Shown in pieces: positions 13,398-33,789 of a DNA stretch of 64,000 nucleotides. Origin of the DNA: Candidatus Promineifilaceae bacterium (GTDB lineage Bacteria; Chloroflexota; Anaerolineae; Promineifilales; Promineifilaceae); contig JBMZDF010000001.1 of the NCBI GenBank assembly GCA_049614105.1, positions 24,338-88,337 of the forward strand. Reading direction: 5' to 3'. Position 1 is the stretch's first letter. Each line of letters starts with the position of its first letter. A program made the position numbers and the translations under genes. Under the pieces are notes generated by a model. The model searched no databases and was not told the origin of the DNA. It saw only the letters and a list, made by a program, of their open reading frames with translations.

Positions 13398-13445
13398 AAA
13401 ACGTAATTATTGATATGGCTCCACATCATTAGGGTGTCTTTTCAT
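13398..13445. repeat. Right copy of the ~47-bp direct repeat that contains the 3' end of the minus-strand ABC gene
   Basis: See 13053-13098. The minus-strand stop codon at 13429-13431 lies inside this copy. Confidence 0.85.
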
Positions 13446-16167
13446 GCAATGTGCCATTTTCCAGCCGCAGATGCCGCCATTCGGTACTTTCCCAAAGGCC
13501 GCGCCGCACTGCGTCTTCCGCGTCAAGCAGCTTGCGATAAGCCGAGTCAGCCTGTTGCGCCAGCACGTGTGGGGCGGCATCTTCTACTAACTGCCCTTCA
13601 TCAATCACAAATACGCGCTCAAATGTTTGCGTATCGCTCACATCATGGGAGATAAACAAGAGCGTTGCGTCAGACCAATAAGCACGCAGTTTGGCAAGCA
13701 GTGCCTGCCGTTGAGGGCGATCCAGACCGCGAAACGGTTCATCAAGGATAATCAAACGGGCGTCTTTGCGCAGCAACGAGCGACCCAAACGCACGCGCTG
13801 GCCCTCGCCACCTGATACAAGTCCGCCCCCTTCGCCTAATTTTGTTTGCAGTCCATCGGGTAAACGTTCGAGCACATCGTACAGGTCGGCTTGGTCGAGA
13901 ATGGGGTTGAGGTGGCTTGGTTCGGCCGAATTGCCATACAACAAATTATCGATCAGCTCACGATTCCAAATCTGCACCGTCGGATCAACCCATGCCGTTT
14001 CCTGCCGAATGGTGTCTAGTCGCGAACCATGCAGCGGCACACCATCAATCGACACCACACCTTCGCTGGCCCAATACCAGCCCAACAACAGCCCAACCAG
14101 ACTCGACTTCCCTGCTCCCGATGCCCCCACAATGGCGACATGCTCACCCGCTCCAATCGCAACATCAATGCCGCGCAAAATCGCATTGCCACCCGCTTCA
14201 ACATGCACATTCTGCATCTGAATTGCCATGCCGCTTTCCGCTGCCACAGGTGTTTCTGAAATAGGATCTCCGCTCCAGCGGTCAGACTCATTTGGCGCAC
14301 CAAGCGGCTCTAAAATCCGCAGCACGCGGTTGCGAATTTGCGGATATTGCAACGTGACAGCGGCAAGCTGTTGTCCAAGCTGGGGCAGATTGAGCACCCA
14401 ATAAAAAAGCAGCAGGACACCTGACGCGCTGCCGCCGATGGCAAGATAACGCAGCATAATCGCGACCGCGCCAACTGTGCCAACGAGCGCTTGGATGCCT
14501 TGCACCCAAAGCGCAACTTGGTTGTAGCTGCGTCCCGCTTTGACCCATTCAGTGAGCAGCATTTCGTGGGCGGTTTCAATGGCGTTTTCGGCCGAATGTG
14601 CCTTAATCGTCACAAGCCCCAACAGCCCATCTAAATAAAAGCGACTTAGCCCGCCGCTGTGCGCCCGCAAGCGTAAATCATGCTCCTGCAACAACGGCTG
14701 CATCAACAGACTAGGCAACACAGCCGCCACCAGCACAACCAGCACAACCCCAAACATTTGTGGGATCAAAATCGCCACGCCTAGCGTGGTCAGCAACAGT
14801 TGGAACGTCAGCCGCAAAAAGCGAACGCCCAACGATGGGAATTGCCGCACGCTTGCCAGCTCATGCGCCCGCATGCTCATGTCGGAAATTAACCGACTTT
14901 GAAAGTAACGATCGCCCAAATGTGGAATTTTTGACAAAAAGGCGATGCGTAACCGCATATCGAGATGGCGTCCCATCCGCTGCACCGTGTCAGACAGCCA
15001 AAATTCGAGCGCTATCATTAAAATGCCAAAACTTAATACCAACAGCAGCGCATTAGTCCGCTGGGCTTGCAGGGTAAGCAGCGCCCCTGCATCAAGCACG
15101 CCACGCAGCAAAAGTGCTTCCAACGTCACGCCAATTGCGGCCAGCGCGGTGGCTAGCGTCACAACGGAGGGCGCTAACAATCCATCCTCGCGCAGCAGTC
15201 GCCACATTTCCCAAAACGGGTGTGGCTCTGGTTCGGCTAGGGCTTGGGCTAATTCGGCCGATAATTCATCTACTTCCTCATCCTCATCCTCACCCTCCGC
15301 TTCTTCTTCTAACGCCTCATCCAAATCAGACGCCGCCTCCTGCACCCCCGTCACGCTCACCAACACCGCGCCGCGCACCATCACCGTTTCGTCCTCATGC
15401 GCCCCGTTTGCTGGACGCACAAACCAATAGTGTGCTGGGATTTGTTGCCACGCAGTCGCCATCGTACTTGATTCGATTAGCTGTGTTAGCAACGTTGCCG
15501 CTTCATTTCCCGTGCCGATCGCTTCCGCATGTACCAAACTGCTAACCAACCGTGTCGCCGCATCGAGCGTCGCAAGGGGAAACCAGCCGTCATCAGCCAA
15601 AGCGTGTGCTAGCAGTTCATCCCGTTGCGTGGCATCAATATGCAACGCCGTCAAACGGGCCGTCAGCGGATCGGTAAACCCTTCCGTGCCAGCCCATTCG
15701 CGCCATGCAGCGGCCGACATATCAAATTCATGCACATAGAGTTGTTCGAGGAGTTGCGCTTCTGTCAGCCAACGACGCCCAATACTTGGGTCCATCACCT
15801 GCACACGTCCGCCATCAACCCGCCACACCACGATAAAGTGGGTTAGCCCGTTGGGGAGACGTACCACCAAAATTGCGGGCAGCACAGCCGTTTCAGGCAG
15901 CAGCAGGTGATCAACAGGAACCATCACTTCCTGTGCTTCTAGCCCCAATTGGTTTGATACTTCTTCGAGAACTTGGATTGATGTGCCGTCTACGCTTGTC
16001 TGACATGCTTCGCGTAGGCGGCCGAAATGGACGGGAATCCCAAACCCTTCTAGGATCGATTTAAGCGCGGCAGGGCCGCAGTCCATGTTAGAGGTTTGTA
16101 CCGTTTCAGGAACTAACCAATGTTGGCCTGATTCGAGCGGAGGGATCCATGCTTGCCAGAAGGACAT
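13429..16167 (-). CDS. C39-peptidase-domain ABC exporter (PCAT type, peptidase-TMD-NBD)
   Basis: The N-terminal C39 triad context is present (NMDCGPAAL, THFIVVW, VMDPSIG). An acidic insert reads EEAEGEDEDEEVDE. The NBD has Walker A GASGAGKSS, signature LSGGEGQR and Walker B LIILDEP. Confidence 0.85.
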   Translation of the reverse strand: MSFWQAWIPPLESGQHWLVPETVQTSNMDCGPAALKSILEGFGIPVHFGRLREACQTSVDGTSIQVLEEVSNQLGLEAQEVMVPVDHLLLPETAVLPAILVVRLPNGLTHFIVVWRVDGGRVQVMDPSIGRRWLTEAQLLEQLYVHEFDMSAAAWREWAGTEGFTDPLTARLTALHIDATQRDELLAHALADDGWFPLATLDAATRLVSSLVHAEAIGTGNEAATLLTQLIESSTMATAWQQIPAHYWFVRPANGAHEDETVMVRGAVLVSVTGVQEAASDLDEALEEEAEGEDEDEEVDELSAELAQALAEPEPHPFWEMWRLLREDGLLAPSVVTLATALAAIGVTLEALLLRGVLDAGALLTLQAQRTNALLLVLSFGILMIALEFWLSDTVQRMGRHLDMRLRIAFLSKIPHLGDRYFQSRLISDMSMRAHELASVRQFPSLGVRFLRLTFQLLLTTLGVAILIPQMFGVVLVVLVAAVLPSLLMQPLLQEHDLRLRAHSGGLSRFYLDGLLGLVTIKAHSAENAIETAHEMLLTEWVKAGRSYNQVALWVQGIQALVGTVGAVAIMLRYLAIGGSASGVLLLFYWVLNLPQLGQQLAAVTLQYPQIRNRVLRILEPLGAPNESDRWSGDPISETPVAAESGMAIQMQNVHVEAGGNAILRGIDVAIGAGEHVAIVGASGAGKSSLVGLLLGWYWASEGVVSIDGVPLHGSRLDTIRQETAWVDPTVQIWNRELIDNLLYGNSAEPSHLNPILDQADLYDVLERLPDGLQTKLGEGGGLVSGGEGQRVRLGRSLLRKDARLIILDEPFRGLDRPQRQALLAKLRAYWSDATLLFISHDVSDTQTFERVFVIDEGQLVEDAAPHVLAQQADSAYRKLLDAEDAVRRGLWESTEWRHLRLENGTLHEKTP

Positions 16168-16179
16168 GAAAAAATACGA

Positions 16180-16627
16180 TTATTGTTTGGTCAACATATT
16201 CCACAGAAATTGCACGGGGGATACCGTCTCGATTTCAACCGCCACTTCACCTGTCAGCGCCTCACTCAGTTCGACACTATCAGACAACACATCAATATGC
16301 GCCACAACGGAGCCATCAGTATGTGGCACAAAGCGATGCACGTAGGCTGGCAGCACGCGCAAATCATTGCCATCCGCATCTTGCAAATGCAACCGCGCAC
16401 CGACCCCTGTCATAAGCGGTGGCAGCCCGTCGTCAAACTTGGCGGTGATCAGTCCGTCTCGTGTTTGGTCAAGCTGGCCACTGACTTCGTGCAGGGCGAT
16501 GTTACCTGTGGCGAACCAAATAAGCCACGCCACAAACAGCGGCGCAACAAGCAAAAGCCCCAGCAGTCCGTTGTGATAGCTGTCGGCTTCTAACGAGCGC
16601 AGAGATCGGGTGAAAGGTAGAGACATA
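16180..16627 (-). CDS. Short HlyD-like membrane-fusion/adaptor protein
   Basis: The start is taken at MSLPFTRSL. It has one N-terminal TM (LLGLLLVAPLFVAWLIWF) and then a beta-rich region loosely resembling the HlyD C-terminal barrel. The longer track ORF to 16890 overlaps the divergent gene. Confidence 0.45.
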
Positions 16628-16682
16628 GCGCACCTAACATATCGTTTGACCGCCTTTTCAAGTCGCGCCGTTGCATTTTGAC

Positions 16683-16701
16683 CGCAACGGAAATCGTTGC
16701 G
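16683..16701. repeat. CGCAACG-N5-CGTTGCG hairpin, family copy 1
   Basis: The sequence cgcaacg gaaat cgttgcg lies in the divergent intergenic region. Confidence 0.8.
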
Positions 16702-16760
16702 TTTCAATGTGTCAAGTTGGATCGCAAAATGCTGTTGCACGGTACACTTTAGCGGTGACG

Positions 16761-18845
16761 ATGTTGCAGACAATGAGCTGGACAAAAGCCGATCTTGGCA
16801 ACGGCATACACCTTTTGGCGCAGCGGGCGGGGTTATCGGCTGGCGCGTCGAATGAGGGGAGTGTTTCGGCCGAAACAAGCACCATCCCACATCTTGCGGC
16901 TTCCCTTGGACTCACCGCACAAGCGGTGAACTGGCGCTATCGCGATTATCGCATGCTGCTCCAGCTTGCCGCGCCTGCTGTCTTGCAGGTTGAAATTTCG
17001 GCCGAAATTCGCTACCTCCTGTTGCTCCGCCGTGGGCAAAAACAAATCACACTGCTCACCCCTGACCAAAAACAGGTGCGTTTACCGATCGCAACCCTGT
17101 TAGCACCACTGCAAGCGCAAGAAGCTGGCTCGCTCGGCGCAGAGGCCGATGCGCTGCTTGCCAAAACGCAGTTGCCAAGCGACCGCATCCCAATTGCCCG
17201 CGCCGCGTTGCTGGCTGAACAGCTCAACGGCAAACAACTGTCAGGCTGCTGGCTGCTCCAACCCGCCGCAAATGCCTCCCTTTGGCAACGATTGCGGCAA
17301 ACGCGCCTCATGCGCCACCTGCTCACCATTTTTAGCACCGCCGTCACCCAACAAGCATTGACCTTGGGGGCTTGGTACATGATCGGCCGCAGCGCCCTGC
17401 GACAGCATTTTGAGCCGTTTGTGGTCGCCGCATGGATTTTATTGTTGCTCACCGTCATTCCTGTGCAAATGACGGGGCTGTGGGCGCAGTCGGTTTTGGC
17501 CCTCGACACTGGCAAATTGTTTCGCTCACGGCTGCTGCGCGGCATTCTCAATCTGCGCCCCAACGACATTCGCCATCAAGGATCGGGTCAATTTTTAGAG
17601 CGCGTGATGCAAACAGAATCGTTTCAGTCGCTGCTGCTGGGGGGGGGGCTGACCATTCTGCTTGCGTTGATACAGCTCGTTTCAGCTTTTGTTGTGCTAT
17701 CGCTCGGTGCAGGTGGATGGCTACATGCTTTCTCGCTTGCTGGCTGGATGATGCTGACTGGGCTGGTGATTGCTCGATATACTTTTGCTTACAATCGCTG
17801 GTCTGACACGTATCGCAGCCTTACCAATGATCTCGTTGAGCGTATGGTGGGGCAGCGCACGCGGCTGGCGCAAGCGTCCCAGGCAACATGGCACGTGGCG
17901 GAGGATGCCCAGCTTGAGCAGTATCAACAAACGACGCAGCAGGTTGATCGGTGGCAGTTAGTGCTGAATGCGCTTGTCAATCGTGGCTGGTTAGTTGTTG
18001 GATTGGCAGGCATTGCGCTGCCGTTTGTCAGTGAGACGCCTGATGCGACGCACCTTGCGATCAGTTTGGGCGGCATTGTGTTGGCCAGCGGGGCGCTGTC
18101 GGCTATTTCAGCAGGCGTGTTGAGTTTGGCGCGGGTGATGAAAACGTGGCGTGATATTGGCCCGCTGCTGCAAGCGGCTGCAACGTCGGCGGAAAATCGT
18201 GAGATTGTGCTTGATACGACGGCGTCGGCGGGTGGGGCGTTGGTAGTGGCGCGGGATATTGAGTTTAATTATCGGCCGAATGCCAAACCAGTTTTCAGCG
18301 GCATAAACCTTGATATTGCGCACGGCGACCGACTTCTGCTTGAAGGTGCGTCGGGCGGTGGCAAATCAACCTTCGCCAGCTTGTTGATGGGGTTGCGCCA
18401 GCCAACTTCGGGCTTGCTATTGCTGCATGGTCTTGACCAGCCAACAATGGGATTAACCAACTGGCGGCAGCGTGTTGTGGCCGCCCCGCAGTTCCACGAA
18501 AATCATATTTTGACCGAGACGTTTGCTTTTAATTTGTTGATGGGACGGCGTTGGCCCGCCACTGAGGAGGATTTGCGAGCGGCCGCGCAAATTTGCTACG
18601 AGCTAGGTCTTGGTGATCTGCTAGAACGGATGCCGAGCGGGATGCAGCAGATGATTGGCGAGGGTGGCTGGCAGTTGTCGCATGGTGAGCGGAGTCGGCT
18701 ATTTATTGCGCGAACGTTGTTGCAAAATGCCGATCTTATCGTGCTTGATGAGAGCTTTGCGGCACTCGATCCAGCTAATTTGCGGCTGGCGATTGAGTGC
18801 GTTCTGCGGCGAGCGCCAACACTGCTTGTAATTGCTCACCCCTAA
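16761..18845 (+). CDS. ABC exporter, fused TMD-NBD, partner of the C39 exporter
   Basis: It has Walker A GASGGGKST, signature LSHGERSR and Walker B LIVLDES. The start is set at MLQTMSW because the TTG-initiated extension from 16671 contains the hairpin repeat. Confidence 0.75.
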   Translation: MLQTMSWTKADLGNGIHLLAQRAGLSAGASNEGSVSAETSTIPHLAASLGLTAQAVNWRYRDYRMLLQLAAPAVLQVEISAEIRYLLLLRRGQKQITLLTPDQKQVRLPIATLLAPLQAQEAGSLGAEADALLAKTQLPSDRIPIARAALLAEQLNGKQLSGCWLLQPAANASLWQRLRQTRLMRHLLTIFSTAVTQQALTLGAWYMIGRSALRQHFEPFVVAAWILLLLTVIPVQMTGLWAQSVLALDTGKLFRSRLLRGILNLRPNDIRHQGSGQFLERVMQTESFQSLLLGGGLTILLALIQLVSAFVVLSLGAGGWLHAFSLAGWMMLTGLVIARYTFAYNRWSDTYRSLTNDLVERMVGQRTRLAQASQATWHVAEDAQLEQYQQTTQQVDRWQLVLNALVNRGWLVVGLAGIALPFVSETPDATHLAISLGGIVLASGALSAISAGVLSLARVMKTWRDIGPLLQAAATSAENREIVLDTTASAGGALVVARDIEFNYRPNAKPVFSGINLDIAHGDRLLLEGASGGGKSTFASLLMGLRQPTSGLLLLHGLDQPTMGLTNWRQRVVAAPQFHENHILTETFAFNLLMGRRWPATEEDLRAAAQICYELGLGDLLERMPSGMQQMIGEGGWQLSHGERSRLFIARTLLQNADLIVLDESFAALDPANLRLAIECVLRRAPTLLVIAHP

Positions 18846-19017: not shown

Positions 19018-19194
19018 ATGAAGAAAACAAAAAACAAAAAACAGGCACAGTTAAAAGTAAACACAAATGTACGTGCGGGTTTTAGCTTCAATGCATTCGT
19101 TGACAATTTGCAAGCGTTTGCTACCGATGTTGGCGACGCGGCACAGGGTGCTGTGGCTGGTGCGAAAGACGCAATAGCGGATAACGTTGTATAG
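19018..19194 (+). CDS. Small (58 aa) Lys-rich/Ala-Gly-rich peptide of unknown function
   Basis: The peptide is MKKTKNKKQAQLKVNTNVRAGFSFNAFVDNLQAFATDVGDAAQGAVAGAKDAIADNVV. An aaagga RBS lies 6 nt upstream and a 13-bp hairpin follows. Confidence 0.45.
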   Translation: MKKTKNKKQAQLKVNTNVRAGFSFNAFVDNLQAFATDVGDAAQGAVAGAKDAIADNVV

Positions 19195-19454: not shown

Positions 19455-19628
19455 ATGTCAGCTCTAGCAATATTTCTTTCAGGTGCATTTGTTGGTAGTA
19501 GTGTCAAGTGGATTTGTGATGAGTGGCAGTTGCGCTCGCAGAACGCGCAGGTTGCAAATACAGACGATGATCTGTTAGCCCATGACAAACTATCTGATAA
19601 CCCACCTGTGGCTCCTACAAACTCATAG
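19455..19628 (+). CDS. Possible 57-aa small membrane protein, below the ORF-track length cutoff
   Basis: The peptide MSALAIFLSGAFVGSSVKWICDEW... follows an aaggggaaa RBS 7 nt upstream of the ATG. It conflicts with the 86-aa minus-strand track ORF, which has no such signal. Confidence 0.3.
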   Translation: MSALAIFLSGAFVGSSVKWICDEWQLRSQNAQVANTDDDLLAHDKLSDNPPVAPTNS

Positions 19629-19684
19629 GCATCGTGTACGTCACAGTCTGAGTTCTCTAAATCACTTTCCATAAGTTTTATCCC

Positions 19685-20803
19685 ATGCAATCTCTCGATC
19701 TCGATCTGCTGTTACAAATCGCCTCACAGATTACCTGGGTCTTTTTCTCAGTCTATGTCGTCACTGTTACTATTCGGTCGGCAATTCGACACGGTATTCT
19801 GCGTGCAGGTCTCGAACTGCTGACCTTTCGCGTTCTCCTGCCGCTCATGTTGCCGATTGTTATGTCGTTGATCAGCATGTCGGTCGTTTTTGTGCATCCA
19901 CAGCAGGTTGGCGTCGTTGTGTCGATTATGCTGCCTGGTGGTGTGCGTCCAGAGGCAATGCCGGCTGGTCTGCACTTCATCATCCCTCTGATCGAATATG
20001 AGGTAATCTATCCAATTTCTTGGCAAACATATACGATGTCAAGCAAAGTCGGCGAAGGAAACGTTCTGGGCGATGACTCAATTCGCGCTCGTACAAGCGA
20101 CGGGCAGGAAGTTCTAATCGACACGTCCGTGATTTTCCGCATCGATCGCGAACAAGCCGTGACGCTTTATATCGACTGGCAAGAACGGTACATCGAAGAT
20201 TTTATGCGCCCTGTGTTGCGCGGCTATGTGCGCCGCCAAGTGTCACAATTCACGGTTGAGGAAGTTAACAGCTCATCACGGCGCGATCTTGAAGCATTAC
20301 TTGATCGCCTGTTGCTAGATGAATTTGAGGATAAAGGCTTGGTTCTCGATCAGTTTTTGTTGCGCGATATTGCGTTTTCGCCAGAGTATGCGCTAGCGGT
20401 TGAGAAGAAACAGGTGGCGCTAGAAGGGCAACAACAAACGCTGTATGAGGCACAACAAGCGATCAACATTGCCACAGGCAACGCCAGCGCGATTGAAATT
20501 GAGGCAAACGGACGGGCAACAGCGATCAAACTGGAAGCGGAAGCGGAAGCAGAGGCCTTAAAGCTGATTGCGGCAGCATTGGAAACAAACGACCAGCTAC
20601 TGACGTATGCGTATATTGAGCAACTCGCCCCCAACATTGATGTTATGTTGCTTCCAAACGACGCACCGTTCCTCTTTCCACTGCCTGACCTTAAACAAAA
20701 TGATGTGGTGACACAAACGATTACCACCACAGTCGAAGAAACGCTCGAAATCGTGCCTCCCCCATTTCTGACACCTGTGCCAGAAAATGCTATTAAGGAA
20801 TAA
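19685..20803 (+). CDS. SPFH/band-7 (prohibitin/HflC-like) membrane protein
   Basis: Two N-terminal hydrophobic segments are followed by GLHFIIPLIEYEVIYPISWQTYTM...DGQEVLIDTSVIFRI...LLRDIAFSPEYALAVEKKQVA and an Ala/Glu coiled coil. Confidence 0.8.
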   Translation: MQSLDLDLLLQIASQITWVFFSVYVVTVTIRSAIRHGILRAGLELLTFRVLLPLMLPIVMSLISMSVVFVHPQQVGVVVSIMLPGGVRPEAMPAGLHFIIPLIEYEVIYPISWQTYTMSSKVGEGNVLGDDSIRARTSDGQEVLIDTSVIFRIDREQAVTLYIDWQERYIEDFMRPVLRGYVRRQVSQFTVEEVNSSSRRDLEALLDRLLLDEFEDKGLVLDQFLLRDIAFSPEYALAVEKKQVALEGQQQTLYEAQQAINIATGNASAIEIEANGRATAIKLEAEAEAEALKLIAAALETNDQLLTYAYIEQLAPNIDVMLLPNDAPFLFPLPDLKQNDVVTQTITTTVEETLEIVPPPFLTPVPENAIKE

Positions 20804-20805
20804 GT

Positions 20806-21543
20806 ATGGAGCATAAAGCACCCCAATTGAGTCGTATCAGTCAGAAACAACTGTTGGTCGATAAATTCTTAACTTGGATGCCTGCTAGCGATGCAACCGC
20901 TTGGCTGAGAGCCTTGTCTGCAACTGAGCAGGCGACAGCCATCCACGAGATCGCCGCGTTTTGCCAAGATGCGGGCTTTGAGTTGTCGTGGGTTGTCGAA
21001 AACCAAATCGGCAATGAGCAGTTGGCCGATCTGTTGAAGCAGTCCGTGTTGCGTAGCGTCGAAACGCTGCACAGCGCCAGCATCGCGCAGCCGTTGCTAA
21101 CAACGTACACGGCACTCGTCAAATGGTTAAACAACCCGATCAAGCGTGGCTATCGTAAACAAACGCGCCAAATTTATATTCGGCTAGTCGAACAAGGCGT
21201 CATTGCAAATGCAGACGCAGCTATTTTGCTCAATAGTGACAAATTGCGCTGGGACTATGTTCAGAAAGCGCTGTTGACGGCGTACCGTGAGGACGCGGCA
21301 GCGGTTGAATCGGCCGTGCAAGCAATCATCGTTAATGAGCCAGAGGCGGCTGAAACGCCGCAGCGGGCGTGGTGGTATTTCAGCCACAGGATAACCATCA
21401 TGCCGATTGGAATTGTGGAAACAGCCCTCGTTCTAACATTGGCACGTGGCGCACAGGGGCGCATTCGCAAACGGCGGCGACGTAAACGCCGCCGACAATT
21501 TTTTCACGCTCAGCGTTCACTGAGCAAACAGGAGTCACAATGA
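20806..21543 (+). CDS. Uncharacterised paralog family X, copy 1, with a C-terminal hydrophobic segment and a poly-Arg/Lys tail
   Basis: It shares the core W(L)..L...E......FC...GF.L.WVVE.QI..E.L... and the region ...YR(K/P)(Q/K)T(R/Q)..Y..L..(Q/D)GVI with 33790, 37509(-) and 38561. Confidence 0.6.
   Translation: MEHKAPQLSRISQKQLLVDKFLTWMPASDATAWLRALSATEQATAIHEIAAFCQDAGFELSWVVENQIGNEQLADLLKQSVLRSVETLHSASIAQPLLTTYTALVKWLNNPIKRGYRKQTRQIYIRLVEQGVIANADAAILLNSDKLRWDYVQKALLTAYREDAAAVESAVQAIIVNEPEAAETPQRAWWYFSHRITIMPIGIVETALVLTLARGAQGRIRKRRRRKRRRQFFHAQRSLSKQESQ
21472..21504 (+). terminator. Intragenic GC-rich hairpin plus T-run, terminator-like, inside the poly-Arg coding segment
   Basis: cggcggcg (21472-21479) and cgccgccg (21487-21494) flank the loop acgtaaa, followed by acaa and tttttt (21499-21504). 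Confidence 0.35.
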
Positions 21544-21977
21544 TTACACTCACTTCAATCCTTACTTTTGTATCTGGCTCGCTGATTGGCGGATTCTGTA
21601 CTCGCCAGGTACGTCGCTGGCGGCAACAACGTACGGTAGTTATGCTGAAGGAACCTACCCCAAACGAGCCTATACTGACTGACCCTGTTGTAAACGCGCC
21701 TGTTTTAGAGGAGCCGACACCAAACGAGCCAGTCTTGGTTGAATCTACACCAGATGAGCCTGTTGATGTCCCTGAAGCGAAAGAGGATAATCTTCAACAA
21801 ATTGCGGGCATCGGCAGGGTCTATGCAAAACGGCTGCAAGCGGCAGGTATTCGTTCATTTGCCGATCTCGCGCAACGTACACCACAAGAAATCGTCGCTT
21901 TTGTTACAGCAAGCGGCACGCCGCAACCTAACGTTGAGCCATGGATTATTGATGCAGCACGACTTGCTGCGGCCTAA
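21540..21977 (+). CDS. Membrane-anchored Pro-rich protein with a C-terminal helix-hairpin-helix motif
   Basis: It has an N-terminal TM, EPTPNEP(I/V)L repeats, and IAGIGRVYAKRLQAAGIRSFADLA (HhH-like). Its ATGA overlaps the upstream gene. Confidence 0.6.
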   Translation: MITLTSILTFVSGSLIGGFCTRQVRRWRQQRTVVMLKEPTPNEPILTDPVVNAPVLEEPTPNEPVLVESTPDEPVDVPEAKEDNLQQIAGIGRVYAKRLQAAGIRSFADLAQRTPQEIVAFVTASGTPQPNVEPWIIDAARLAAA

Positions 21978-22017
21978 TGTTGAGTCTCTTGTTAACATCT
22001 TTTAATAACTAAAAATT

Positions 22018-23397
22018 ATGACGCTTACGCAGTCTCTAGCACCACGCCCGATCACACAGGCACGCACCGTTTTATCTCGTTGGTGGCAAAAAACGCTTGC
22101 CCCGGCTGTTGATCGACTGGTGATGGAATCGGCCGAACATAATCAGACCCTCTCTACAGCAAGCGTTGGCCTGTCTGCTGCAAGCGTTATTTTCTTCCCA
22201 CCGCTCAAGCTACTTATTGCCCCAACGTTGTTGTTGACCGCCCTACCAGCTTGTCAGACCATGATCGAAACATGGCGGCGCGACAAAGCGGTTCACAACC
22301 ATACGCTCAAGGTTTTGCTGACGGGTGGACTGATCGCGACTAATCACCTGTTAGTGGGTGCGGTTGGGACGTGGCTGCTTACCCAATGTGATAACAACAC
22401 CACTGAAACAGATGGCCCACCATTGACGTTATCGGGGTTAGCAATTGGGGTGCTGGCTTTGCCCGTTGCAGGTGTTTCAGGTGGTTTGGCCGCGTTGTTT
22501 GCCGCTGCGGGCTATGATGCGCTGAAACCAATTGCCGCCCCGCTGCATAACAAACATGACATGGTGGTGCGTAATTTGCCCGCTGCATTACGATTGCCCA
22601 CAGTGGATGTGGTGCTGCTCGATCAGAACTGTTTGGTGCAAACAGAGCTGTTGGGCGTACAAGCCTATGGTCATCATGCGCCAGATGAGATTATCTACTT
22701 CGCCATGCTGGCCGCGACGCCAACGCTGCCCGCAACATTACGCAAACATTTCCCCCAGCTTGTCCCTGACACACACCAGATCGACGTGCTGCTCAGACCA
22801 GCATTAGACACACAGGATTTTGATAGTTGCCCAGAGGCCATCGCCATGCAGCGCCTTGAAGTTGTTGTGAGCGGTCACAGCATTGGCGCACTTGATCTGA
22901 CGTATGTGCCGCTCCCGCAAGCGCGGCTGTTGCTGCACGCTTTGCGCGAAAAGGGGTTCACAACACAGCTACTGTCTAATCTATCTGAGCCGCAAACGGC
23001 TAAATTAGCGTCTGAATTTGATATAGATGCGTATCAGGCTGAGCTTTCCACCGATGATAAGCGTCTGCAAATTTTTACCTTGCAGCAGAATGGTCAAACG
23101 GTTTGTTTTATAGGACGTGAACAGGTGATCGCTTCCGATCTCACGCTGTCACTTGAAGCAGGGTCATTAGATTCGGATGTTTCGCTGTCTGAGAACGCAT
23201 TACCTCAGTTGTTGTCTCATGTTGAACAGCAGACACGGCAGCTCAATCTGTTCAAGCGGCTGCGCGTTGTGCCTGTTGCGTTGACAACGGGCAGTATCTT
23301 TTTCTTTCATTGGGGACTCCCTGCGGCGGTGACTGTGCAGGCAGTGGGGTGGTTTGGCTATCAGTTGTTGGCAGCGTCCCGGCGACGTGGTTCGTGA
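22018..23397 (+). CDS. Degenerate P-type-ATPase-like membrane protein with no actuator domain and lost catalytic motifs
   Basis: The N-terminal TM pair aligns with 10014 and 39505. The DKTGT position reads LLDQNCLVQ and the GDGxND position reads FIGREQVIASD. No TGES region is present. Confidence 0.6.
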   Translation: MTLTQSLAPRPITQARTVLSRWWQKTLAPAVDRLVMESAEHNQTLSTASVGLSAASVIFFPPLKLLIAPTLLLTALPACQTMIETWRRDKAVHNHTLKVLLTGGLIATNHLLVGAVGTWLLTQCDNNTTETDGPPLTLSGLAIGVLALPVAGVSGGLAALFAAAGYDALKPIAAPLHNKHDMVVRNLPAALRLPTVDVVLLDQNCLVQTELLGVQAYGHHAPDEIIYFAMLAATPTLPATLRKHFPQLVPDTHQIDVLLRPALDTQDFDSCPEAIAMQRLEVVVSGHSIGALDLTYVPLPQARLLLHALREKGFTTQLLSNLSEPQTAKLASEFDIDAYQAELSTDDKRLQIFTLQQNGQTVCFIGREQVIASDLTLSLEAGSLDSDVSLSENALPQLLSHVEQQTRQLNLFKRLRVVPVALTTGSIFFFHWGLPAAVTVQAVGWFGYQLLAASRRRGS

Positions 23398-23561
23398 AGC
23401 GCTTTTCTCTAATTGGTAATTATCAATTATTCATTATCCGTTGTTTTCGGCACTGTTTTGATGTGGTTACTCTGGCAATCCTAACTACCTATGAGTTGTT
23501 ACCAATTGATAACGGATAACGGATAACGACCAATGAAGCATTATCACCACTGTTGAGTGCG

Positions 23562-25406
23562 TTAACTATATAGCTCTGCAAATGCTTCACCTAGTGCTTC
23601 CTGAAAGGTGTTGCGTTCTTGCCACGTAAGTGTTTCGTACAAATGATGACGTACAAGCGGGTGTTGAAAACGGTAGCGGGCGTAGCGTTGTCGATTGATG
23701 ATGAGCGGTTGTTGCTCGATGAGGAGACGATAGCGGCGCACCAGTTCTCCCAGTTGGTGTGCAAGCGTTTGCGAGGTGATGTGACAAACTGTGCCAATGG
23801 CATCAGCGGTAAACTCCTCACCTTCGACGCTGGCGGCACGCAACAGATAACAGAGTGATTCGGGCAAAACACCAACCCAACGTGTTAGGAGGGCTTCGAT
23901 TTCGGCCGAAACTAAATCCTCCCAAACCACATCCTTCACCAACATCCACGCCCCTTTACTATCACGCTCTACATAAGATTGAGCCTGTAACGTGCGCCAT
24001 ACCTGCACCACAATGGCAGGATGCCCACACGTAAAACGGTAAAACTGTCTGCGAAAAGCAAACGGTAGTGTATTTGGCTCGTTATCAAGCTTGGCATCTA
24101 TAAACCTTAAACCGTCCTGTTGCCACACCGCATCGAGATCAATCATGGCACTGTGTTGGGCTTGTAGCACAGGCGTCACATCCCAATGTGAGCGATAGGA
24201 ACCGATCAACATAATCTGCTGCGATCCAAGACGGGTTGCAAGCTGTTCAAAAAGCAACTGTGATGCGGTATCGGCCCACTGCAAATCGTCTATGACCAAA
24301 AGCAACGTTGTGCGCTGAACCATTGTTTCCAGCAGTTGGATCAGTTGAGATATGGTTGGGTAGGTGTTTTGCGGCCAGTTTAACCCAAGCTGTGCAAATA
24401 GGTGTTGTACAGAGGTATAGGGCTGTGTCCCGTTTTGTTGGCACGCTGTTTTTGCGCTGATTAATGTGCTGTGGGCCAAGATCGCCTGTTCGGTGAAGGT
24501 GTGTAACAGGCAGCTTTTGCCGCTGCCCGTTTGCCCTTTGATAAGAGCTAGCTGACCTTGCCCATGTCGTGTTTGGGTCAGCAGTTGGGTAAGCTGGTCA
24601 AGCTGGGTGTCTCGGCCGAGACAGCGGCTTATTTCGGCCGATTGTGTTTCGCCCATAGCAGGCAGCGGCGGGAGTTTTCCAAGTTTGATCTGATTGTAGA
24701 GCGTGGATGTTTCAGCCGAAACATCCACATCAACCTCTCTCCGCAGCGCCGTCACACAGCGATCATACTGCGCGATGGCCCCCGCCATATCTCCGTTACG
24801 CGCCTTGATTTCCATCAATAGCCGATGCCCGCCCTCATGATACGGTTGAAGCTGTAGCAGACGGGCCGCCGCTGCTTCTGTCTCATCCGTTCGCTGCTGC
24901 ACCCAATAACGATGCGCCACCACCAACCACCCCTTGAGCGCCAGTTGATACAGTCGCTCACGTTGTGTAATGACCCACTGCTCAAAAATTGGCGCATCTG
25001 GGACATAGAACTGCTGTAGAAAGTCGCCCTGATATTGTTGCAATGCATGGTGTAAAGTCGGTAGTGCGATCTGATGCAGATTGCCCGTCAACACCCGCTC
25101 AAACAGTGCAACATCGACCAGATGCGGCAACGTAACGTTAAACTCAACTGTATGGTGAGAAATAAGCAGGGTTTTGGGAAGATGTTGGCGCAACGATGGG
25201 AGAACATTACGCAGGTTTTTCTTGGCTTGAGCTGCGTCTGCGCTTGACCAGAACATTTTGCCAAGAAAATCACGTGCATGAATGCCTTTACACAAAGCGG
25301 TGTAGTAAAGCAGCGCCTGCGCCTTTTTCGGCAGCCGTTGTTGTCGCTGTTGTTCACCCCATGTAATTGTTGGCTCGCCTAACTGGCGAATGTACAGTTC
25401 ATCCAT
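23562..25406 (-). CDS. SARP-type regulator: OmpR-like wHTH, BTAD and a P-loop ATPase
   Basis: The N-terminal winged-helix region is followed by BTAD-like helices (...LLQLQPYHEGGHRLLMEIKARNGDMAGAIAQYDRCVTALRREV) and Walker A GQTGSGKS. Confidence 0.75.
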   Translation of the reverse strand: MDELYIRQLGEPTITWGEQQRQQRLPKKAQALLYYTALCKGIHARDFLGKMFWSSADAAQAKKNLRNVLPSLRQHLPKTLLISHHTVEFNVTLPHLVDVALFERVLTGNLHQIALPTLHHALQQYQGDFLQQFYVPDAPIFEQWVITQRERLYQLALKGWLVVAHRYWVQQRTDETEAAAARLLQLQPYHEGGHRLLMEIKARNGDMAGAIAQYDRCVTALRREVDVDVSAETSTLYNQIKLGKLPPLPAMGETQSAEISRCLGRDTQLDQLTQLLTQTRHGQGQLALIKGQTGSGKSCLLHTFTEQAILAHSTLISAKTACQQNGTQPYTSVQHLFAQLGLNWPQNTYPTISQLIQLLETMVQRTTLLLVIDDLQWADTASQLLFEQLATRLGSQQIMLIGSYRSHWDVTPVLQAQHSAMIDLDAVWQQDGLRFIDAKLDNEPNTLPFAFRRQFYRFTCGHPAIVVQVWRTLQAQSYVERDSKGAWMLVKDVVWEDLVSAEIEALLTRWVGVLPESLCYLLRAASVEGEEFTADAIGTVCHITSQTLAHQLGELVRRYRLLIEQQPLIINRQRYARYRFQHPLVRHHLYETLTWQERNTFQEALGEAFAELYS

Positions 25407-25549
25407 TGTTGTCGCCTGGATATATTGTGGGGCAAGGTTAACGCCTCGTATAGACTCTTAACGCAACTAGAGCGCAACGAAGTCTTGCTATCTACAAGGA
25501 TTGGGAGTTATATGCCCTGAGCTGACTGATTTTCCAGCGAAAAGATAGG

Positions 25550-26560
25550 CTAACTATGAATGCTTGTCAAATTGTGTTTGAGGGCAAACTTGACAAGGCC
25601 AGGGAGGTGAGAAATATTTAGCTTGCGCATAATATGAGCGCGATGGGTGCGGATGGTGACGTCGCTTAAGCTAAGCTGGATACCAATCTGGGCGGTTGTG
25701 TCGCCGTTACATAACAAGCTCAAAACCTCGCGCTCGCGTTCTGACAAACCAGCGAGTGCTGTAGATTCGGCATTGAGGGGGTTATTTTCGGCCGAACGAG
25801 GCGCAACCACAATCCCGTGCAAGTACCGCTGCATCTGATCCGCCCGCTGCCACACAGTTTGTAATAAATCAATGCTTCTACGATTTGTTGAGCTGTGCGC
25901 CGTTAAACTTTGAGTCGCTAAGTGCAAGTCAGTTGTTATAGCCGTTAAGTTGTCGAGCAACTGTTGATTAATAATATTAGCTAGCTCTAACTGCGTCATC
26001 GGCCGCGTTTGTAAAAGCTGGCTTGTGAAAGAATAGAGCTGTTGATTTTGCTCTTGTAGCAATCGCAACAGTTGTTCTTTCTCTAGCTGCTGCTGACAAC
26101 GTAACTCGATTTCAGCCTGTAACTCAGCCGTTTTGGCTGTCACTGTTTCTTCGAGCTGTTCGTTTGTTGTTATCAATACCTGCTGTAGGGTCGCAAGCGT
26201 GATATGAGTGCGGATGCGGGCCAAAACGTCCGCTGCGTTAACTGGCTTCGTGATGTAATCGACCCCTCCTGCCTCGAACCCCATTAGGCGATCGTCCGTA
26301 TCAGTTAGAGCAGAAAGAAACAGGATAGGCGTGTTGGCAATATCTGGGTTGGCTTTAATGGCACGACACGTCTCATAGCCGTTCATGCCTGGCATTCGTA
26401 CATCAAGCAAAATCAGATCGGGGCGTGCTTGTGCCGCCAGTTCAACGGCATCAATGCCGTTTCCTGCGGCGAGTATGTGGTATTCCTCTGAATCTAAATA
26501 GTCAAAAAGAACAGCGAGATTAGCAAGGTTATCATCAACGACCAGAAGTGTATGTTTCAT
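25550..26560 (-). CDS. Response regulator: REC, coiled coil and a LuxR-type HTH
   Basis: MKHTLLVVDD...LILLDVRMPGMNGYE...ILFLSALTD...GGVDYITKPV is a REC domain. The C-terminus LSEREREVLSLLCNGDTTAQIGIQLSLSDVTIRTHRAHIMRKL is a LuxR-type HTH. Confidence 0.8.
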   Translation of the reverse strand: MKHTLLVVDDNLANLAVLFDYLDSEEYHILAAGNGIDAVELAAQARPDLILLDVRMPGMNGYETCRAIKANPDIANTPILFLSALTDTDDRLMGFEAGGVDYITKPVNAADVLARIRTHITLATLQQVLITTNEQLEETVTAKTAELQAEIELRCQQQLEKEQLLRLLQEQNQQLYSFTSQLLQTRPMTQLELANIINQQLLDNLTAITTDLHLATQSLTAHSSTNRRSIDLLQTVWQRADQMQRYLHGIVVAPRSAENNPLNAESTALAGLSEREREVLSLLCNGDTTAQIGIQLSLSDVTIRTHRAHIMRKLNISHLPGLVKFALKHNLTSIHS

Positions 26561-26976
26561 ATTGTAGATTGTGTTGCGGTGGTTTCTTCTGCAAGCCACT
26601 AACATCGTTTGTGTATACAGAACGAGCGGAGCAGGATCAATGCTTGTGTGCTAAATGTCGGGTATTCGGCCGAAATTGTTTCCAACACGCCTTTTACCCC
26701 AGAAATATCCCTAGTTCCCCAGTTAATGCAACTGTAGCCGTCACGCAACGGATGGGAGGGTAAGCGTTTATTCTGGAGTTTTGTTGTCTGGATGATAGGT
26801 TTATTCGATGTGGAGCAATGCTTAGTTCGTATCTAGCAACTATTCTATAAAATGGATTAGGTGAAAAGTCGTTGGTCGCCAGCGTTCGGACAGATAAATT
26901 CAATCAGTTTCGTATAATGTGGTTTGTATCATAATAAGGGGGCGTCGTCTGTAGGGCTATTTTCGGCCGAGTTCAC

Positions 26977-26995
26977 CGCAACGAATATCGTTGCG
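26977..26995. repeat. CGCAACGA-N3-TCGTTGCG hairpin, family copy 3
   Basis: The sequence cgcaacga ata tcgttgcg lies in the intergenic region upstream of 27084. Confidence 0.8.
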
Positions 26996-27083
26996 ATAGA
27001 CAGGCCTTTCTCGTCTGTTAAATCAATCAATAAGGCGGTTGGCCTCTACCCTCCTAGGGTAGACCTACCCGCAATGATTCCAA

Positions 27084-29300
27084 TTGTGCGCTGTAAAAGC
27101 TCACCACTATTGCATGTACTTGTTTTTCCTGTTTGCTGTTCTTGCACTCATGGTGCTCGTTTCGATTGTCACTCTTGATGCAAAAGAGGCTGCACTCGGT
27201 CGCCTAGGCTGGCGCATTGGATTTCTGTTGCTGTTCATCATTGGTGGATTGGTTGGCGTGCGCTATTCAATCACACGTGCCGTTCCCTGTTTTCCAGATT
27301 GCACAGGTATTAATTTTTTAGATCGCAACTTCAGTGAACGCGACTTTACCAGTGGTAATTTCGTGGACTCTTACATGCCGCGCGTCGATTTTAGCAATGC
27401 AGATCTACGCAATAGCGACTTTTCGGGTGCAAACCTTCGGCACAGTGATTTTAAGGGCGCAGATTTGCGATTCACTTTTTTCATTGGGACTGATTTGGAA
27501 AGCGCCGATTTGGGTGCGGCTCAATTGCAAAATGCATCGTTTCAAGGGGCAGATTTAACCGAGAGCAATTTGGCAGGTGTGAATCTCTCACAGACCGATT
27601 TATCAGGTGCAATACTCAACCGAGCCACGTTGGTTGGTGCAGATTTGTCGGGTGCGCGGCTTACAGGAATTGAGTTGCGTGGCGCAGATTTAAGTGGCGC
27701 AGATTTAAGTGGCGCACAGCTTGCTGGTGCATCTTTGAGCGAGGCAAATCTAAGCGGCGCGGATTTAAGCGGTGCTAATTTGCAAGGCACATTCATAAAC
27801 CTTGCCACCCTAACTGGAGCCGATTTGACCGATGCGAAATTAGCAGGGGCGAGTCTGATCGGCACCGATTTATCATCGGTGAATTTACGGCGTGCCGAGC
27901 TAGTCGGTGCGCTCATTATGGGCGCTCGATTTGACGGGGCCGATTTACGCGGCGCACAGCTTCGTTATATGCGCGATGTCGATCAGGTTACGCCCGAAGA
28001 TTTAGAACTGGACCCTGTACTTGCGGGTATGAACGCCCTTCAACGCGAAGCGATCACCGTCCCTAGCCGTCTTGAGGGCATTGTTGTGGATGCCAACACG
28101 CTTGCCCCGGCCGAACTATTGCCTGCTGTTGCCCAAGTAGCCGAAGATACGACAGAGCGACAGGTTAATGTCGCTATTTTGCATTCTGTTAGCGGCGATT
28201 TGGCGTTTGGGGAATCGGCCGTGCTCGATGCAACGCTGCTTGCCATCCGCGAGATCAACGCGGCAGGTGGCATCTTGGGACGCAAGATCGTGCCAATTGT
28301 TGAAGATGGGGCTAGCGACCCAAGAGTGTTTGCAGAGAAAACAACCAAATTGTTAGAAATCGACGAAGTAGACGTGATGTTTGGCGTCTCAACAACCGCC
28401 AGTCGCAAGGCAATCATTCCTATCTTAGATAAAAACAGCAGTTTGCTTTTCTATCCCACACAGCACGAAGGGTTGGAAGTATCTGACAATATTATTTACA
28501 TGGGCGCTGACCCATCTCAGCAAATTGTGCCAACCATTGAATACCTTTTAGCGGAAGGGTTTGAAACCTTTTTCTTGATCGGCTCAGATCGTGAATATGC
28601 CCACATTGCCCACCCGCTTATCAAAGCACAGCTTGCCAATGCGGGTGCAGAGGTCACTGGTGAAGTGCTGGTTCCCCTTAAAAACACAAACTTAGCGGCT
28701 GCCGTGCGCGAAATCGCCTTTTTGAAACCAGCCGTTGTCATCAATACGCTGGTTGGCGTTTCCAACAAAGCTTTTTTTGAAGCTTTTGCCGAAGAACGCA
28801 TCGCACCGACATCGTTGCCGATCATATCGTTTGGCATGGGTGAAACAGAGGTACAGGAGGTGGGCGTTGAATTTGTTGCGGGTCATTTGATTGCTGCCAG
28901 CTATTTTCAGACGGTTAACACCATTGAGAATTTCACATTTGTCGATGCCTATAAAGAAACACACGGGCGAGAGTCGGTTACCTCAGATGCGATTATGTAT
29001 GGGTATGCGTCTGTCTATTTGTGGGAAGCCTTGGTTCGACAAGCGCGGTCTTTTGATGTGGAGGCGATCAAACAAGTAGTTGAGGAAATCCCCATTGAGT
29101 TAGAAACGCCCAACGGGATGATCCAGCTTGATGCTGAGACAAAGTATATTGCCAAACCGTTACGCATCGGCCGAATTCGGGATGATGGTCTAATCGAAGA
29201 GATATTTACCACAGGGAACCTGATCGCCCCCGACCCGTTTCTGACAGAGTACGATTGGGCCGAGGAAATAGTAACCCTTTTGTTGGAGGAAGAAGAATGA
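27084..29300 (+). CDS. Membrane protein fusing a long pentapeptide-repeat array to a type-1 periplasmic-binding (AmiC/UrtA/Liv-like) domain
   Basis: Two TM segments are followed by ~40 A(D/N)LxG-type pentapeptides. After these comes VNVAILHSVSGDLAFGESAVLDATLLAIREINAAGGILGRKIVPIVEDGASDP..., typical of PBP1 amide/urea/branched-chain binders. The exact start is uncertain. Confidence 0.7.
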   Translation: MCAVKAHHYCMYLFFLFAVLALMVLVSIVTLDAKEAALGRLGWRIGFLLLFIIGGLVGVRYSITRAVPCFPDCTGINFLDRNFSERDFTSGNFVDSYMPRVDFSNADLRNSDFSGANLRHSDFKGADLRFTFFIGTDLESADLGAAQLQNASFQGADLTESNLAGVNLSQTDLSGAILNRATLVGADLSGARLTGIELRGADLSGADLSGAQLAGASLSEANLSGADLSGANLQGTFINLATLTGADLTDAKLAGASLIGTDLSSVNLRRAELVGALIMGARFDGADLRGAQLRYMRDVDQVTPEDLELDPVLAGMNALQREAITVPSRLEGIVVDANTLAPAELLPAVAQVAEDTTERQVNVAILHSVSGDLAFGESAVLDATLLAIREINAAGGILGRKIVPIVEDGASDPRVFAEKTTKLLEIDEVDVMFGVSTTASRKAIIPILDKNSSLLFYPTQHEGLEVSDNIIYMGADPSQQIVPTIEYLLAEGFETFFLIGSDREYAHIAHPLIKAQLANAGAEVTGEVLVPLKNTNLAAAVREIAFLKPAVVINTLVGVSNKAFFEAFAEERIAPTSLPIISFGMGETEVQEVGVEFVAGHLIAASYFQTVNTIENFTFVDAYKETHGRESVTSDAIMYGYASVYLWEALVRQARSFDVEAIKQVVEEIPIELETPNGMIQLDAETKYIAKPLRIGRIRDDGLIEEIFTTGNLIAPDPFLTEYDWAEEIVTLLLEEEE

Positions 29301-30271: not shown

Positions 30272-30273
30272 TT

Positions 30274-31488: not shown

Positions 31489-31506
31489 GGATGGAGTAAC
31501 GAGGCA

Positions 31507-33756: not shown

Positions 33757-33789
33757 TACCAACCCAAATTGGCATCAACTTGATCCCTT

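Follow-up and report, generated by a model that had tools for sequence, protein, structure and literature searches.

The SPFH/Band-7 gene at 19685-20803 and the gene directly behind it, which encodes a protein of a family designated here X (20806-21543), lie on the plus strand of a 64,000-nucleotide stretch of DNA, hereafter the window, from the metagenome-assembled genome of an uncultured member of the Chloroflexota (Candidatus Promineifilaceae bacterium, GCA_049614105.1, contig JBMZDF010000001.1). According to the data described below, it is fairly probable that the SPFH-X pair is an accessory membrane module of a cluster exporting peptides with a double-glycine-type (AG/GG) leader. The best explanation for the gene content is that four conserved genes of the window (encoding SPFH, X, a helix-hairpin-helix (HhH) protein and a degenerate P-type ATPase) are the tail of a larger cluster, which is met again in many metagenomes as well as in several lineages of the Chloroflexota. 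The core of this cluster would consist of an HlyD-like adaptor, an ABC exporter with a C39 peptidase domain (C39-ABC), a second ABC exporter, precursors with the leader K-V-x-T-x-L-K-A-G(G), SPFH, X, and two pentapeptide-repeat envelope proteins; ParA-like ATPases, solute-binding proteins (SBPs), a SARP regulator and intact or decayed P1B-type ATPases would be its variable accessories.

The genes on which this reading is based are the following, with their positions in the window:

13429-16167, minus strand: C39-peptidase ABC exporter, 912 amino acids (aa); Peptidase_C39 4e-22, ABC_tran, ABC_membrane
16180-16626, minus strand: short HlyD-like adaptor, 148 aa, an N-terminal transmembrane (TM) segment followed by a small beta-rich part
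16761-18845, plus strand: second ABC exporter (permease and ATPase, no C39 domain); ABC_tran 1.3e-19
19018-19194, plus strand: precursor-like peptide, 58 aa; leader MKK..QLKVNTNVRAG, Ala/Gln-rich core
19455-19628, plus strand: small TM peptide open reading frame (ORF), 57 aa, one hydrophobic segment
19685-20803, plus strand: SPFH/Band-7 protein, 372 aa, PF01145
20806-21543, plus strand: family X protein, 245 aa
21540-21977, plus strand: TM/Pro-rich/HhH protein, 145 aa, DUF4332/HhH
22018-23397, plus strand: degenerate P1B-type ATPase homologue (pseudo-ATPase), 459 aa

Conserved neighbours of SPFH and X

A scan of metagenomes with an SPFH alignment returned 230 relatives, and 80 loci were fetched, which fall into 70 clusters after dereplication at 90% SPFH identity. 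These loci were annotated with the window proteins and a hidden Markov model (HMM) of X, which may give too low a count for families that the window does not contain, a bias against which an unbiased clustering of unannotated ORFs partly guards. In the dereplicated set, the next gene downstream of SPFH is X in 25 of 48 loci, a convergent ParA-like ATPase gene in 10 and a pentapeptide protein gene in 8, and the next gene upstream is an ABC exporter (often overlapping) in 16 of 39 and a P-type ATPase derivative in 4. The 27 loci of at least 9 kb, referred to here as long loci, encode pentapeptide proteins in 22 cases (usually two of them), the ABC exporter in 20, X in 18, C39-ABC in 13, the short adaptor in 12, ParA-like ATPases in 9, P-type ATPase relatives in 8, SBPs in 6, SARP regulators in 4, HhH proteins in 2 and the cyclase homologue in 1. 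Genes of the 459-aa pseudo-ATPase type are absent from all 80 metagenome loci. The earlier note on this DNA had drawn the limits of the unit at 19455-23397; the most conserved partners of SPFH, which are the upstream ABC exporter, the leader peptide and the pentapeptide proteins, lie outside these limits.

The same associations are observed in related Chloroflexota genomes. The adjacency of SPFH and X recurs in G019, G064, G181, G419 and on the contig L052, which carries an X homologue. In G181 and G419, from two other Chloroflexota families, the order is ABC exporter, SPFH and X, with two pentapeptide genes alongside; in L052 it is ABC exporter, a 149-aa adaptor, SPFH and X; and in G019 and G064, which belong to another genus, a 265-277-aa N-terminal P-type ATPase fragment precedes SPFH, X, an SBP and two pentapeptide proteins. 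An ABC exporter gene is located directly upstream of SPFH in G001 (at two loci), G060, G106 and G181, and adaptor homologues are encoded upstream of C39-ABC in G001 and G060. In G060 and G106 (genus g10), the ABC exporter and SPFH genes overlap or abut, and unrelated housekeeping genes follow. In addition, X directly follows an intact P-type ATPase gene in G001:C13 and G064.

The closest comparison is between the source genome (G000) and its congener G001, labelled Ardenticatenaceae. In G001 the genes form a single tight co-directional array, which begins with the ABC exporter, a small peptide and SPFH; continues with a fusion of pentapeptide repeats to a periplasmic binding protein (PBP), a pentapeptide protein, an SBP, a cyclase homologue and the X paralogue Xb, all between SPFH and X; and ends with X, HhH and pseudo-ATPase, convergent with an orthologous SARP regulator gene. 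A single rearrangement separates both arrangements (window 19685-34431 versus G001:C48, L042), and in the window the block that intervenes between SPFH and X in G001 is a separate operon downstream of SARP and response-regulator genes. The order X, HhH, pseudo-ATPase has been seen only within this genus, in the window and in G001. The synteny proposed in the earlier note extends far beyond the strain for the SPFH-X pair, which is kept in three further Chloroflexota genera or families besides the metagenome loci counted above. As a conserved unit of five genes it does not hold, since HhH and pseudo-ATPase follow X only in the genus and five genes split SPFH from X in G001.

The other genes of the window mentioned in the text are:

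10014-12230, plus strand: intact P1B-like P-type ATPase paralogue, 738 aa; TIGR01525 397 bits, above the cut-off
23562-25406, minus strand: SARP/BTAD plus AAA (STAND) regulator, convergent with the pseudo-ATPase gene; BTAD 6.7e-14, AAA_16 2.3e-21
27084-34431, plus strand: five-gene block with Pfam and NCBIfam matches, encoding a pentapeptide-UrtA-like PBP fusion, a pentapeptide lipoprotein, an SBP, a Cache-HAMP cyclase-homology protein and the X paralogue Xb (33790-34431)
37509-38273, minus strand: Xc, X paralogue
38555-39166, plus strand: Xd, X paralogue
39505-40971, plus strand: second truncated P-type ATPase
41177-42124, plus strand: ParA-like ATPase

In 14 loci, among them most of those that have a convergent ParA-like gene, the gene just after SPFH encodes a conserved, N-terminally anchored protein of about 95 aa (L078, L086, L090, L092, L099, L102, L104, L109, L114, L115, L121, L131, L132 and L133). 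It starts ME/QLLxxxLIAGVxGYxLAxSRxSKPID, continues into an acidic tail and ends in SRRK, and it fills the position of X between SPFH and the convergent ParA-like gene; it has no Pfam match and no significant similarity to X or to the 57-aa ORF.

Exporters and leader peptides

The adaptor gene of the window is located directly upstream of the C39-ABC gene, and its product is 29% identical to that of the 149-aa gene of L052. A plus-strand ORF at 16153-16593, which had been considered as the adaptor, is spurious, the real gene being 16180-16626 on the minus strand. The ORF of the second ABC exporter opens at a TTG codon at 16671, and its start is probably M31 at 16761 as judged from the alignment with G001, which leaves a divergent promoter region of about 135 bp.

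The 58-aa peptide gene sits between the second ABC exporter and SPFH. The peptide encoded at the same position in G001 has the leader in common (MKK..KK..QLKV.T..R[AG]G) and a different core. When the motif K[VIL]x[TS]x[VILM][RSKQ][AG]G was searched near the start of ORFs of up to 160 residues in 91 loci, 24 small ORFs were found in 20 loci, compared with 0.4 in shuffled sequences (window, L073, L079, L081, L083, L089, L096, L098, L100, L106, L107, L115, L116, L118, L120, L121, L123, L125, L129 and L035). For 13 of the 22 leader peptides of metagenome loci the nearest annotated gene is SPFH, from which they are typically divergent, and others abut X or the ABC exporter. The cores behind this leader are of several mutually unrelated types: Ala/Gln-rich and helical, CGCD-containing, built on a PLLDPFTGAPM repeat, or built on a duplicated GGGYVNGVWYPDKSG-x-C unit (GGGYVNGVWYPDKSGxC). 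None of the leader peptides matches an NCBIfam model.

These peptides show, at the level of their sequences, the features of double-glycine precursors, namely an N-terminal leader ending in AG or GG, a C39-ABC gene nearby and a variable core. The conserved leader, together with the C39-peptidase exporter, fits a family of the double-glycine type, and the peptides are the likely substrate of the exporter set encoded at 13429-18845.

SPFH, X and the genus-specific proteins

The ORF listing agrees with the five plus-strand ORFs of the earlier note, and the sequence at the three junctions confirms that the genes from SPFH onwards are co-directional and tightly coupled. Between the stop codon of SPFH (TAA, 20801-20803) and the start codon of X (ATG, 20806) there is only GT, and AAGGA lies just 5' of this start; X and HhH overlap by ATGA at 21540-21543, with AGGAG 5 nt upstream; and an AT-rich spacer of 40 nt precedes the ATG of the pseudo-ATPase gene at 22018. 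At 21472-21504, 36 nt ahead of the HhH start, the Arg codons of X generate a hairpin with a perfect 8-bp stem of G/C pairs only (CGGCGGCG…CGCCGCCG) followed by T6. Being terminator-like, it might in part separate the expression of HhH and pseudo-ATPase from that of SPFH-X; alternatively, it may just result from the codons used there. Promoter and terminator scans gave signals at chance level. The 57-aa peptide gene that the note had placed at the head of the operon stands as an ORF with a hydrophobic segment and, on reading the sequence, a good Shine-Dalgarno motif (AAGGGG). Nevertheless, no homologue of it was found in the genome, the relatives or the loci fetched, it shows no match to the family of about 95 aa that follows SPFH elsewhere, and its GC content at third codon positions is spacer-like (0.38, versus 0.34 in the flanking intergenic DNA). 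Because of this lack of homologues and this near-intergenic composition it is treated here as an unverified gene.

The assignment of the SPFH protein relies on PF01145 (Band_7), matched at residues 70-258 with 103.8 bits against a cut-off of 23.6 (1.4e-29). The protein consists of two N-terminal TM helices, the SPFH domain, a coiled-coil helix of about 70 residues and a Pro/Thr-rich tail, and its AlphaFold2 model (predicted local distance difference test (pLDDT) 84) places helices at 6-66, a mixed domain at 67-231 and a further helix at 233-301. The predicted structure therefore shows the anchor, the alpha/beta fold of the SPFH domain and, on its C-terminal side, a long coiled-coil helix like that of cage-forming members. 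Its best phmmer match in the PDB is prohibitin-2 (1.8e-11), and in Foldseek the model matches PHB2 at 2e-18, HflK/C at 8e-16 and QmcA more weakly at 4e-10. Taking sequence and modelled fold together, the protein is closest to prohibitin and HflK/C. It scores far below the HflK and HflC equivalog models (TIGR01933 28 bits, cut-off 159; HflC 18 bits, cut-off 427), and neither a second SPFH gene nor an FtsH gene is found in the cluster of the window. Orthologues with 45-70% identity were found in 8 genome loci and in the 230 metagenome stretches. In L112, L113 and L127, two tandem SPFH genes of the same clade follow the ABC exporter, and these could constitute a hetero-pair of the HflK/C type.

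The earlier note had expected a partner of the NfeD type for SPFH, and was right in reporting that none is adjacent. No match to NfeD (PF01957) was obtained, with E-value limits of 0.1 to 1, in the five ORFs, in the adaptor or in the recurrent neighbours of the related loci; the unbiased clustering of unannotated ORFs in the metagenome loci yielded no NfeD-like family; and the model of X is all-alpha. The source genome holds 10 Band_7 matches versus a single NfeD match, the latter on contig C23. The premise itself, that this SPFH protein should pair with NfeD, does not apply to the clade, because the proteins closest to it are prohibitin and HflK/C, for which we know of no NfeD partner. The expectation of an SPFH-NfeD pair fits the stomatin-type proteins.

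The 245-aa X protein matches nothing in Pfam, NCBIfam or PADLOC. Besides it, the window encodes the three paralogues Xb, Xc and Xd, and the family HMM found no copies outside the window in this 88%-complete genome, so that all four X genes are located within it. A profile of these four paralogues retrieved, from 1.84 billion proteins, 324 cluster representatives at E<=1e-3 and 196 at E<=1e-10, and ten distant members scanned against Pfam gave nothing except a TPR fusion in one. In a word-indexed protein search, X retrieved only itself and an 89-row alignment retrieved three others; searching the genome contigs with a three-row X alignment recovered only the congener locus. The AlphaFold model of X, built from 9 sequences, is all-alpha at residues 14-176 with pLDDT above 90, and Foldseek returned no match in the PDB at E<1. 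Since X is all-helical and has no PDB match, it is not a structural analogue of the OB-fold NfeD proteins; judged from this model, it probably represents a protein family with a new fold, for which there is neither a Pfam model nor a PDB-like structure. Behind the helical domain, X ends in a hydrophobic segment followed by a poly-Arg tail. This C-terminal tail (…IMPIGIVETALVLTLA…RKRRRRKRRRQFF; window 21390-21650) is homologous to the N-terminus of the HhH protein of G001 (L042:10587-11042; MPIGIIETAVVVAAV…KKRKQRARRRNFF); in the window, the hydrophobic/poly-Arg segment is fused in frame to X, and the boundary between the X and HhH genes has shifted with respect to G001. X is 41% identical between the congeners, compared with 66-70% for SPFH.

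In the HhH protein, a TM segment at the N-terminus is joined through a Pro-rich linker to a DUF4332/HhH domain, which scores 25.6 bits with PF14229 (cut-off 23.2) and 26.5 bits with HHH_5 (9e-6), just below the cut-off of 27. It is 36% identical to its G001 orthologue, from which it differs in the start of the TM segment and in having a repeat EPTPNEP(I/V)L. At G000:C201:7638-9602, the gene of another full-length TM-HhH paralogue (31% identity) has a ParA-like gene directly after it, and in G064 an intact P-type ATPase gene stands on either side of an array Xd-HhH-ParA; HhH and ParA-like genes seem to be linked.

The pseudo-ATPase is homologous to P1B-type ATPases over their N-terminal TM region and their P-domain/C-terminal TM region, matching the 680-750-aa ATPase genes of G000, G001 and G003 at 1e-13 to 1e-9, with family scores below the cut-offs (TIGR01525 1.2e-4, HAD 0.004). 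The Pfam matches and motif alignment agree with the identities that the note had given to SPFH, the HhH protein and this degenerate ATPase. Unlike the P1B-type ATPases, including the intact paralogue at 10014-12230, which conserves TGES, DKTGT and GDGIND, the 459-aa protein has lost the catalytic motifs. In the alignment with this paralogue, the A-domain with TGES is missing (around 150 residues), DKTGT is replaced by LLDQN--CL in the window and LLDQS-CL in G001, and GDGxND by FIGRE and FISRE, respectively. The two orthologues are only 32% identical, have these lesions in common and maintain open frames; therefore, catalysis was lost long ago, and the frame has stayed open since. Judging by these lesions, the protein cannot be an ATP-driven pump. 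Among 41 relatives, a full-length orthologue was found only in G001.

The intact ATPase at 10014-12230 lacks the CPC motif. Together with copies on contigs C2, C83, C273, C499 and C531, it is one of at least six intact P1B-like paralogues of G000, which either score above the TIGR01525 cut-off or have 39-44% identity to a paralogue that does so, and which are without CPC in the helix preceding DKTGT (…LNSHFRYRLN… in the window copy). A different derivative is the 265-277-aa protein, composed of the N-terminal TM helices of a P-type ATPase and a beta-rich actuator domain that has lost TGES (PF00122, 3e-6). Its gene is found at L036:8958-9755 (G064) and L041:16867-17697 (G019), as well as in L068, L069, L070, L080 and L094, and in genus g17 it is located directly upstream of SPFH, overlapping it. 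With an anchor and a small beta domain encoded before SPFH, this fragment recalls, by analogy, the short NfeD proteins.

The topology of these proteins was assigned from hydropathy and flanking charge. The basic loop between the two TM helices of SPFH is placed in the cytoplasm, which would leave the SPFH domain and the Pro/Thr-rich tail outside, as in HflK/C and prohibitin; the SPFH domain is therefore predicted to face outwards. In the HhH protein and in members of the X family, basic residues follow a TM segment at the N-terminus, and the domains of these proteins, including that of HhH, are accordingly predicted to be cytoplasmic. A lipobox (LIAC) is present in Penta338, which is the small pentapeptide protein, and a signal anchor in the SBP; the adaptor is assigned as N-in/C-out. 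From these assignments, SPFH, the pentapeptide proteins, the SBP and the adaptor would form an outward set, with X, HhH, the remnant P-domain of the pseudo-ATPase, the ParA-like ATPase and the SARP regulator on the cytoplasmic side.

Alternative readings and proposed mechanism

The gene identities, the loss of the catalytic motifs, the conservation of the neighbours and the leader motif, all directly observed, can be compared with several known systems. HflK/C-FtsH of E. coli and the prohibitins PHB1/2 are alike to the system described here in their N-terminal TM helices, SPFH domain, long coiled-coil helix, predicted non-cytoplasmic location of the SPFH domain and absence of an NfeD partner. 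In contrast to HflK/C-FtsH, the cluster here has one SPFH gene in place of a hetero-pair and no gene for FtsH or another AAA protease, and the neighbours are ABC exporters, X and pentapeptide proteins. SPFH-NfeD operons (QmcA-YbbJ, PH1511-PH1510, YuaF-FloT and YqeZ-FloA) also couple an SPFH gene translationally to that of a small membrane-anchored partner, but here the partner X is encoded downstream of SPFH, is all-alpha in its model and gives no PF01957 signal. The export cassettes of the NHLP/NHLM type and those of class II bacteriocins have in common with this cluster a C39-ABC, a second ABC exporter, an adaptor, AG/GG leaders and variable cores. However, the relation to NHLM cassettes is one of architecture only: the adaptor here has just about 148 aa, a very short leader precedes the core, the cluster has no conserved modification enzyme, the NHLM models score far below their cut-offs, and SPFH, X and the pentapeptide proteins are additions for which no description was found in the literature searched. 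The cluster as a whole was not described in this literature either, and no curated family, defence-system model or paper matched it, in agreement with the view of the note that the architecture corresponds to no known system. In PADLOC, none of the five ORFs was matched and only the SARP protein gave a weak AAA match. A defence island or the cargo of a mobile element was rejected, given that there are no defence or phage matches and that the gene content is conserved across lineages.

Several observations weigh against assigning SPFH-X to a leader-peptide export cluster. X is absent from the whole of G060 and G106, where ABC exporter and SPFH are kept together, so X is not obligatory; the 245-aa X of the window is itself without the N-terminal anchor typical of its family; and the NHLM equivalogs are missed by a wide margin (TIGR03796 199 bits for the C39-ABC, cut-off 853; TIGR03797 124 bits for the second ABC exporter, cut-off 709). 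No leader ORF was detected in 71 of the 91 loci, many of them on short contigs, and the peptides could be bacteriocins, signals or something else. To these points it should be added that the topology assignments are simple hydropathy and charge counts.

Four other explanations have been considered. The genus-level data, in which X, HhH, pseudo-ATPase and the convergent SARP gene stay together in G001 and the junctions are tight (2-bp gap, ATGA overlap, 40-bp gap), would suit a self-contained system of five or four genes, with SPFH, X, HhH and pseudo-ATPase in one complex independent of the exporter. This is very unlikely, given that SPFH and X are split by five genes in that same genome, that HhH appears in 2 of the 27 long loci and the 459-aa pseudo-ATPase type in 0 of 80 metagenome loci, that the full-length pseudo-ATPase is limited to the congener among the relatives, and that the commonest neighbours of SPFH lie outside such a unit. 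A second proposal regards the exported peptide as a signal of the quorum type, sensed outside by the PBP/SBP-pentapeptide proteins and the Cache-HAMP pseudo-cyclase, with SPFH clustering the receptors and X, HhH, ParA and SARP acting on the cytoplasmic side. Binding proteins without permeases do recur (the UrtA-like PBP-pentapeptide fusion, a PhnS2-like SBP, and a fusion of PBP and family-5 peptide-type SBP in L122), SARP, response-regulator and STAND regulators are encoded in or beside the cluster, and diverse peptide cores stand behind a constant leader. Nevertheless, SBPs (6/27), SARP (4/27) and the cyclase homologue (1/27) are infrequent in the long loci, there is no conserved histidine kinase, and nothing ties the binding domains to peptides specifically, so this proposal is considered unlikely, though deserving more credit than the others weighed in this paragraph and the next.

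It has also been considered that X and the truncated ATPases could be subunits or regulators of intact P1B-like pumps, with SPFH as a scaffold. The position of X directly after an intact pump in G001:C13 and G064 agrees with this, as do the P-type ATPase-derived genes directly upstream of SPFH (4/39) or within the long loci (8/27), and the presence in the window of one intact and two decayed copies near X genes. On the other hand, 19 of the 27 long loci are without any P-type ATPase relative, and the five other intact paralogues of G000 have no X nearby, all four X genes being in the window; the chances of this module being correct are slim. Similarly low is the probability given to a ParA-type positioning system, in which X and/or the TM-HhH protein would couple an SPFH/exporter assembly to a nucleoid-bound ParA-like ATPase. 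It is a live alternative because TM-HhH genes adjoin ParA-like genes, as in the HhH-then-ParA arrays of G064 and G000:C201, and because 10 of 22 ParA-like genes (ParA315 type) have X as a neighbour; ParA-like genes are moreover present in 9 of 27 long loci. Against it, the ParA-like gene of the window is 18 kb from the SPFH operon and most loci have none.

For the accessory module of the peptide-export cluster, which is the reading favoured here, the following mechanism is proposed; the topology, physical association and function of SPFH-X are what we infer in it. SPFH would oligomerise into a cage or microdomain with its SPFH domain outwards, as HflK/C and prohibitin do, and this cage would sit with the exporter, where it may organise the export machinery or shield the membrane of the producer from the exported peptide. 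X would be a lineage-variable partner, anchored on the cytoplasmic side and acting as an adaptor or as an immunity-like factor. In this genus, X would have recruited two cytoplasm-facing membrane proteins, the TM-HhH protein and, as a non-enzymatic subunit, the dead P-type ATPase; both are lineage-specific additions on the cytoplasmic side.

Both roles, organisation or regulation of the exporter and self-protection of the producer, are compatible with the data, which do not separate them. The organising role is suggested by the translational coupling of ABC exporter and SPFH that persists without X, and by the cage-client relation that HflK/C is known to have with FtsH. The protective role is suggested by how near SPFH and X lie to the genes of the precursors, and by the faster evolution and multiple copies of X. 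A precedent for peptide resistance is the SPFH operon yqeZ-yqfA-yqfB of B. subtilis, listed under 'resistance against sublancin' (PMC3498285).

A broader proposal, which is advanced tentatively and is rather doubtful, is that these loci represent an unrecognised and widespread type of peptide export, in which a dedicated SPFH cage facing outwards would lie around or beside a double ABC exporter, with X and pentapeptide proteins as specific partners and dead P-type ATPases in a structural role. Known superfamilies (SPFH, ABC/C39, pentapeptide, P-type ATPase and HhH) account for the parts; what matched nothing is the cluster as a whole, X with its fold, and the leader family.

The cages formed by SPFH proteins such as HflK/C, prohibitin, stomatin and flotillin are now structurally known. 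To our knowledge, few clients of bacterial SPFH cages have been defined besides FtsH and NfeD. In this context, the cluster provides a genetically defined and recurrent set of candidate SPFH clients, consisting of ABC peptide exporters, X and pentapeptide proteins. It also contributes a protein family of at least 324 sequence clusters without Pfam model or PDB-like fold, a new family of short leaders on exported peptides, and a case of P-type ATPases retained as pseudo-enzymes. If the proposal is true, these loci would add a new class of clients for SPFH cages and a new family of precursor leaders.

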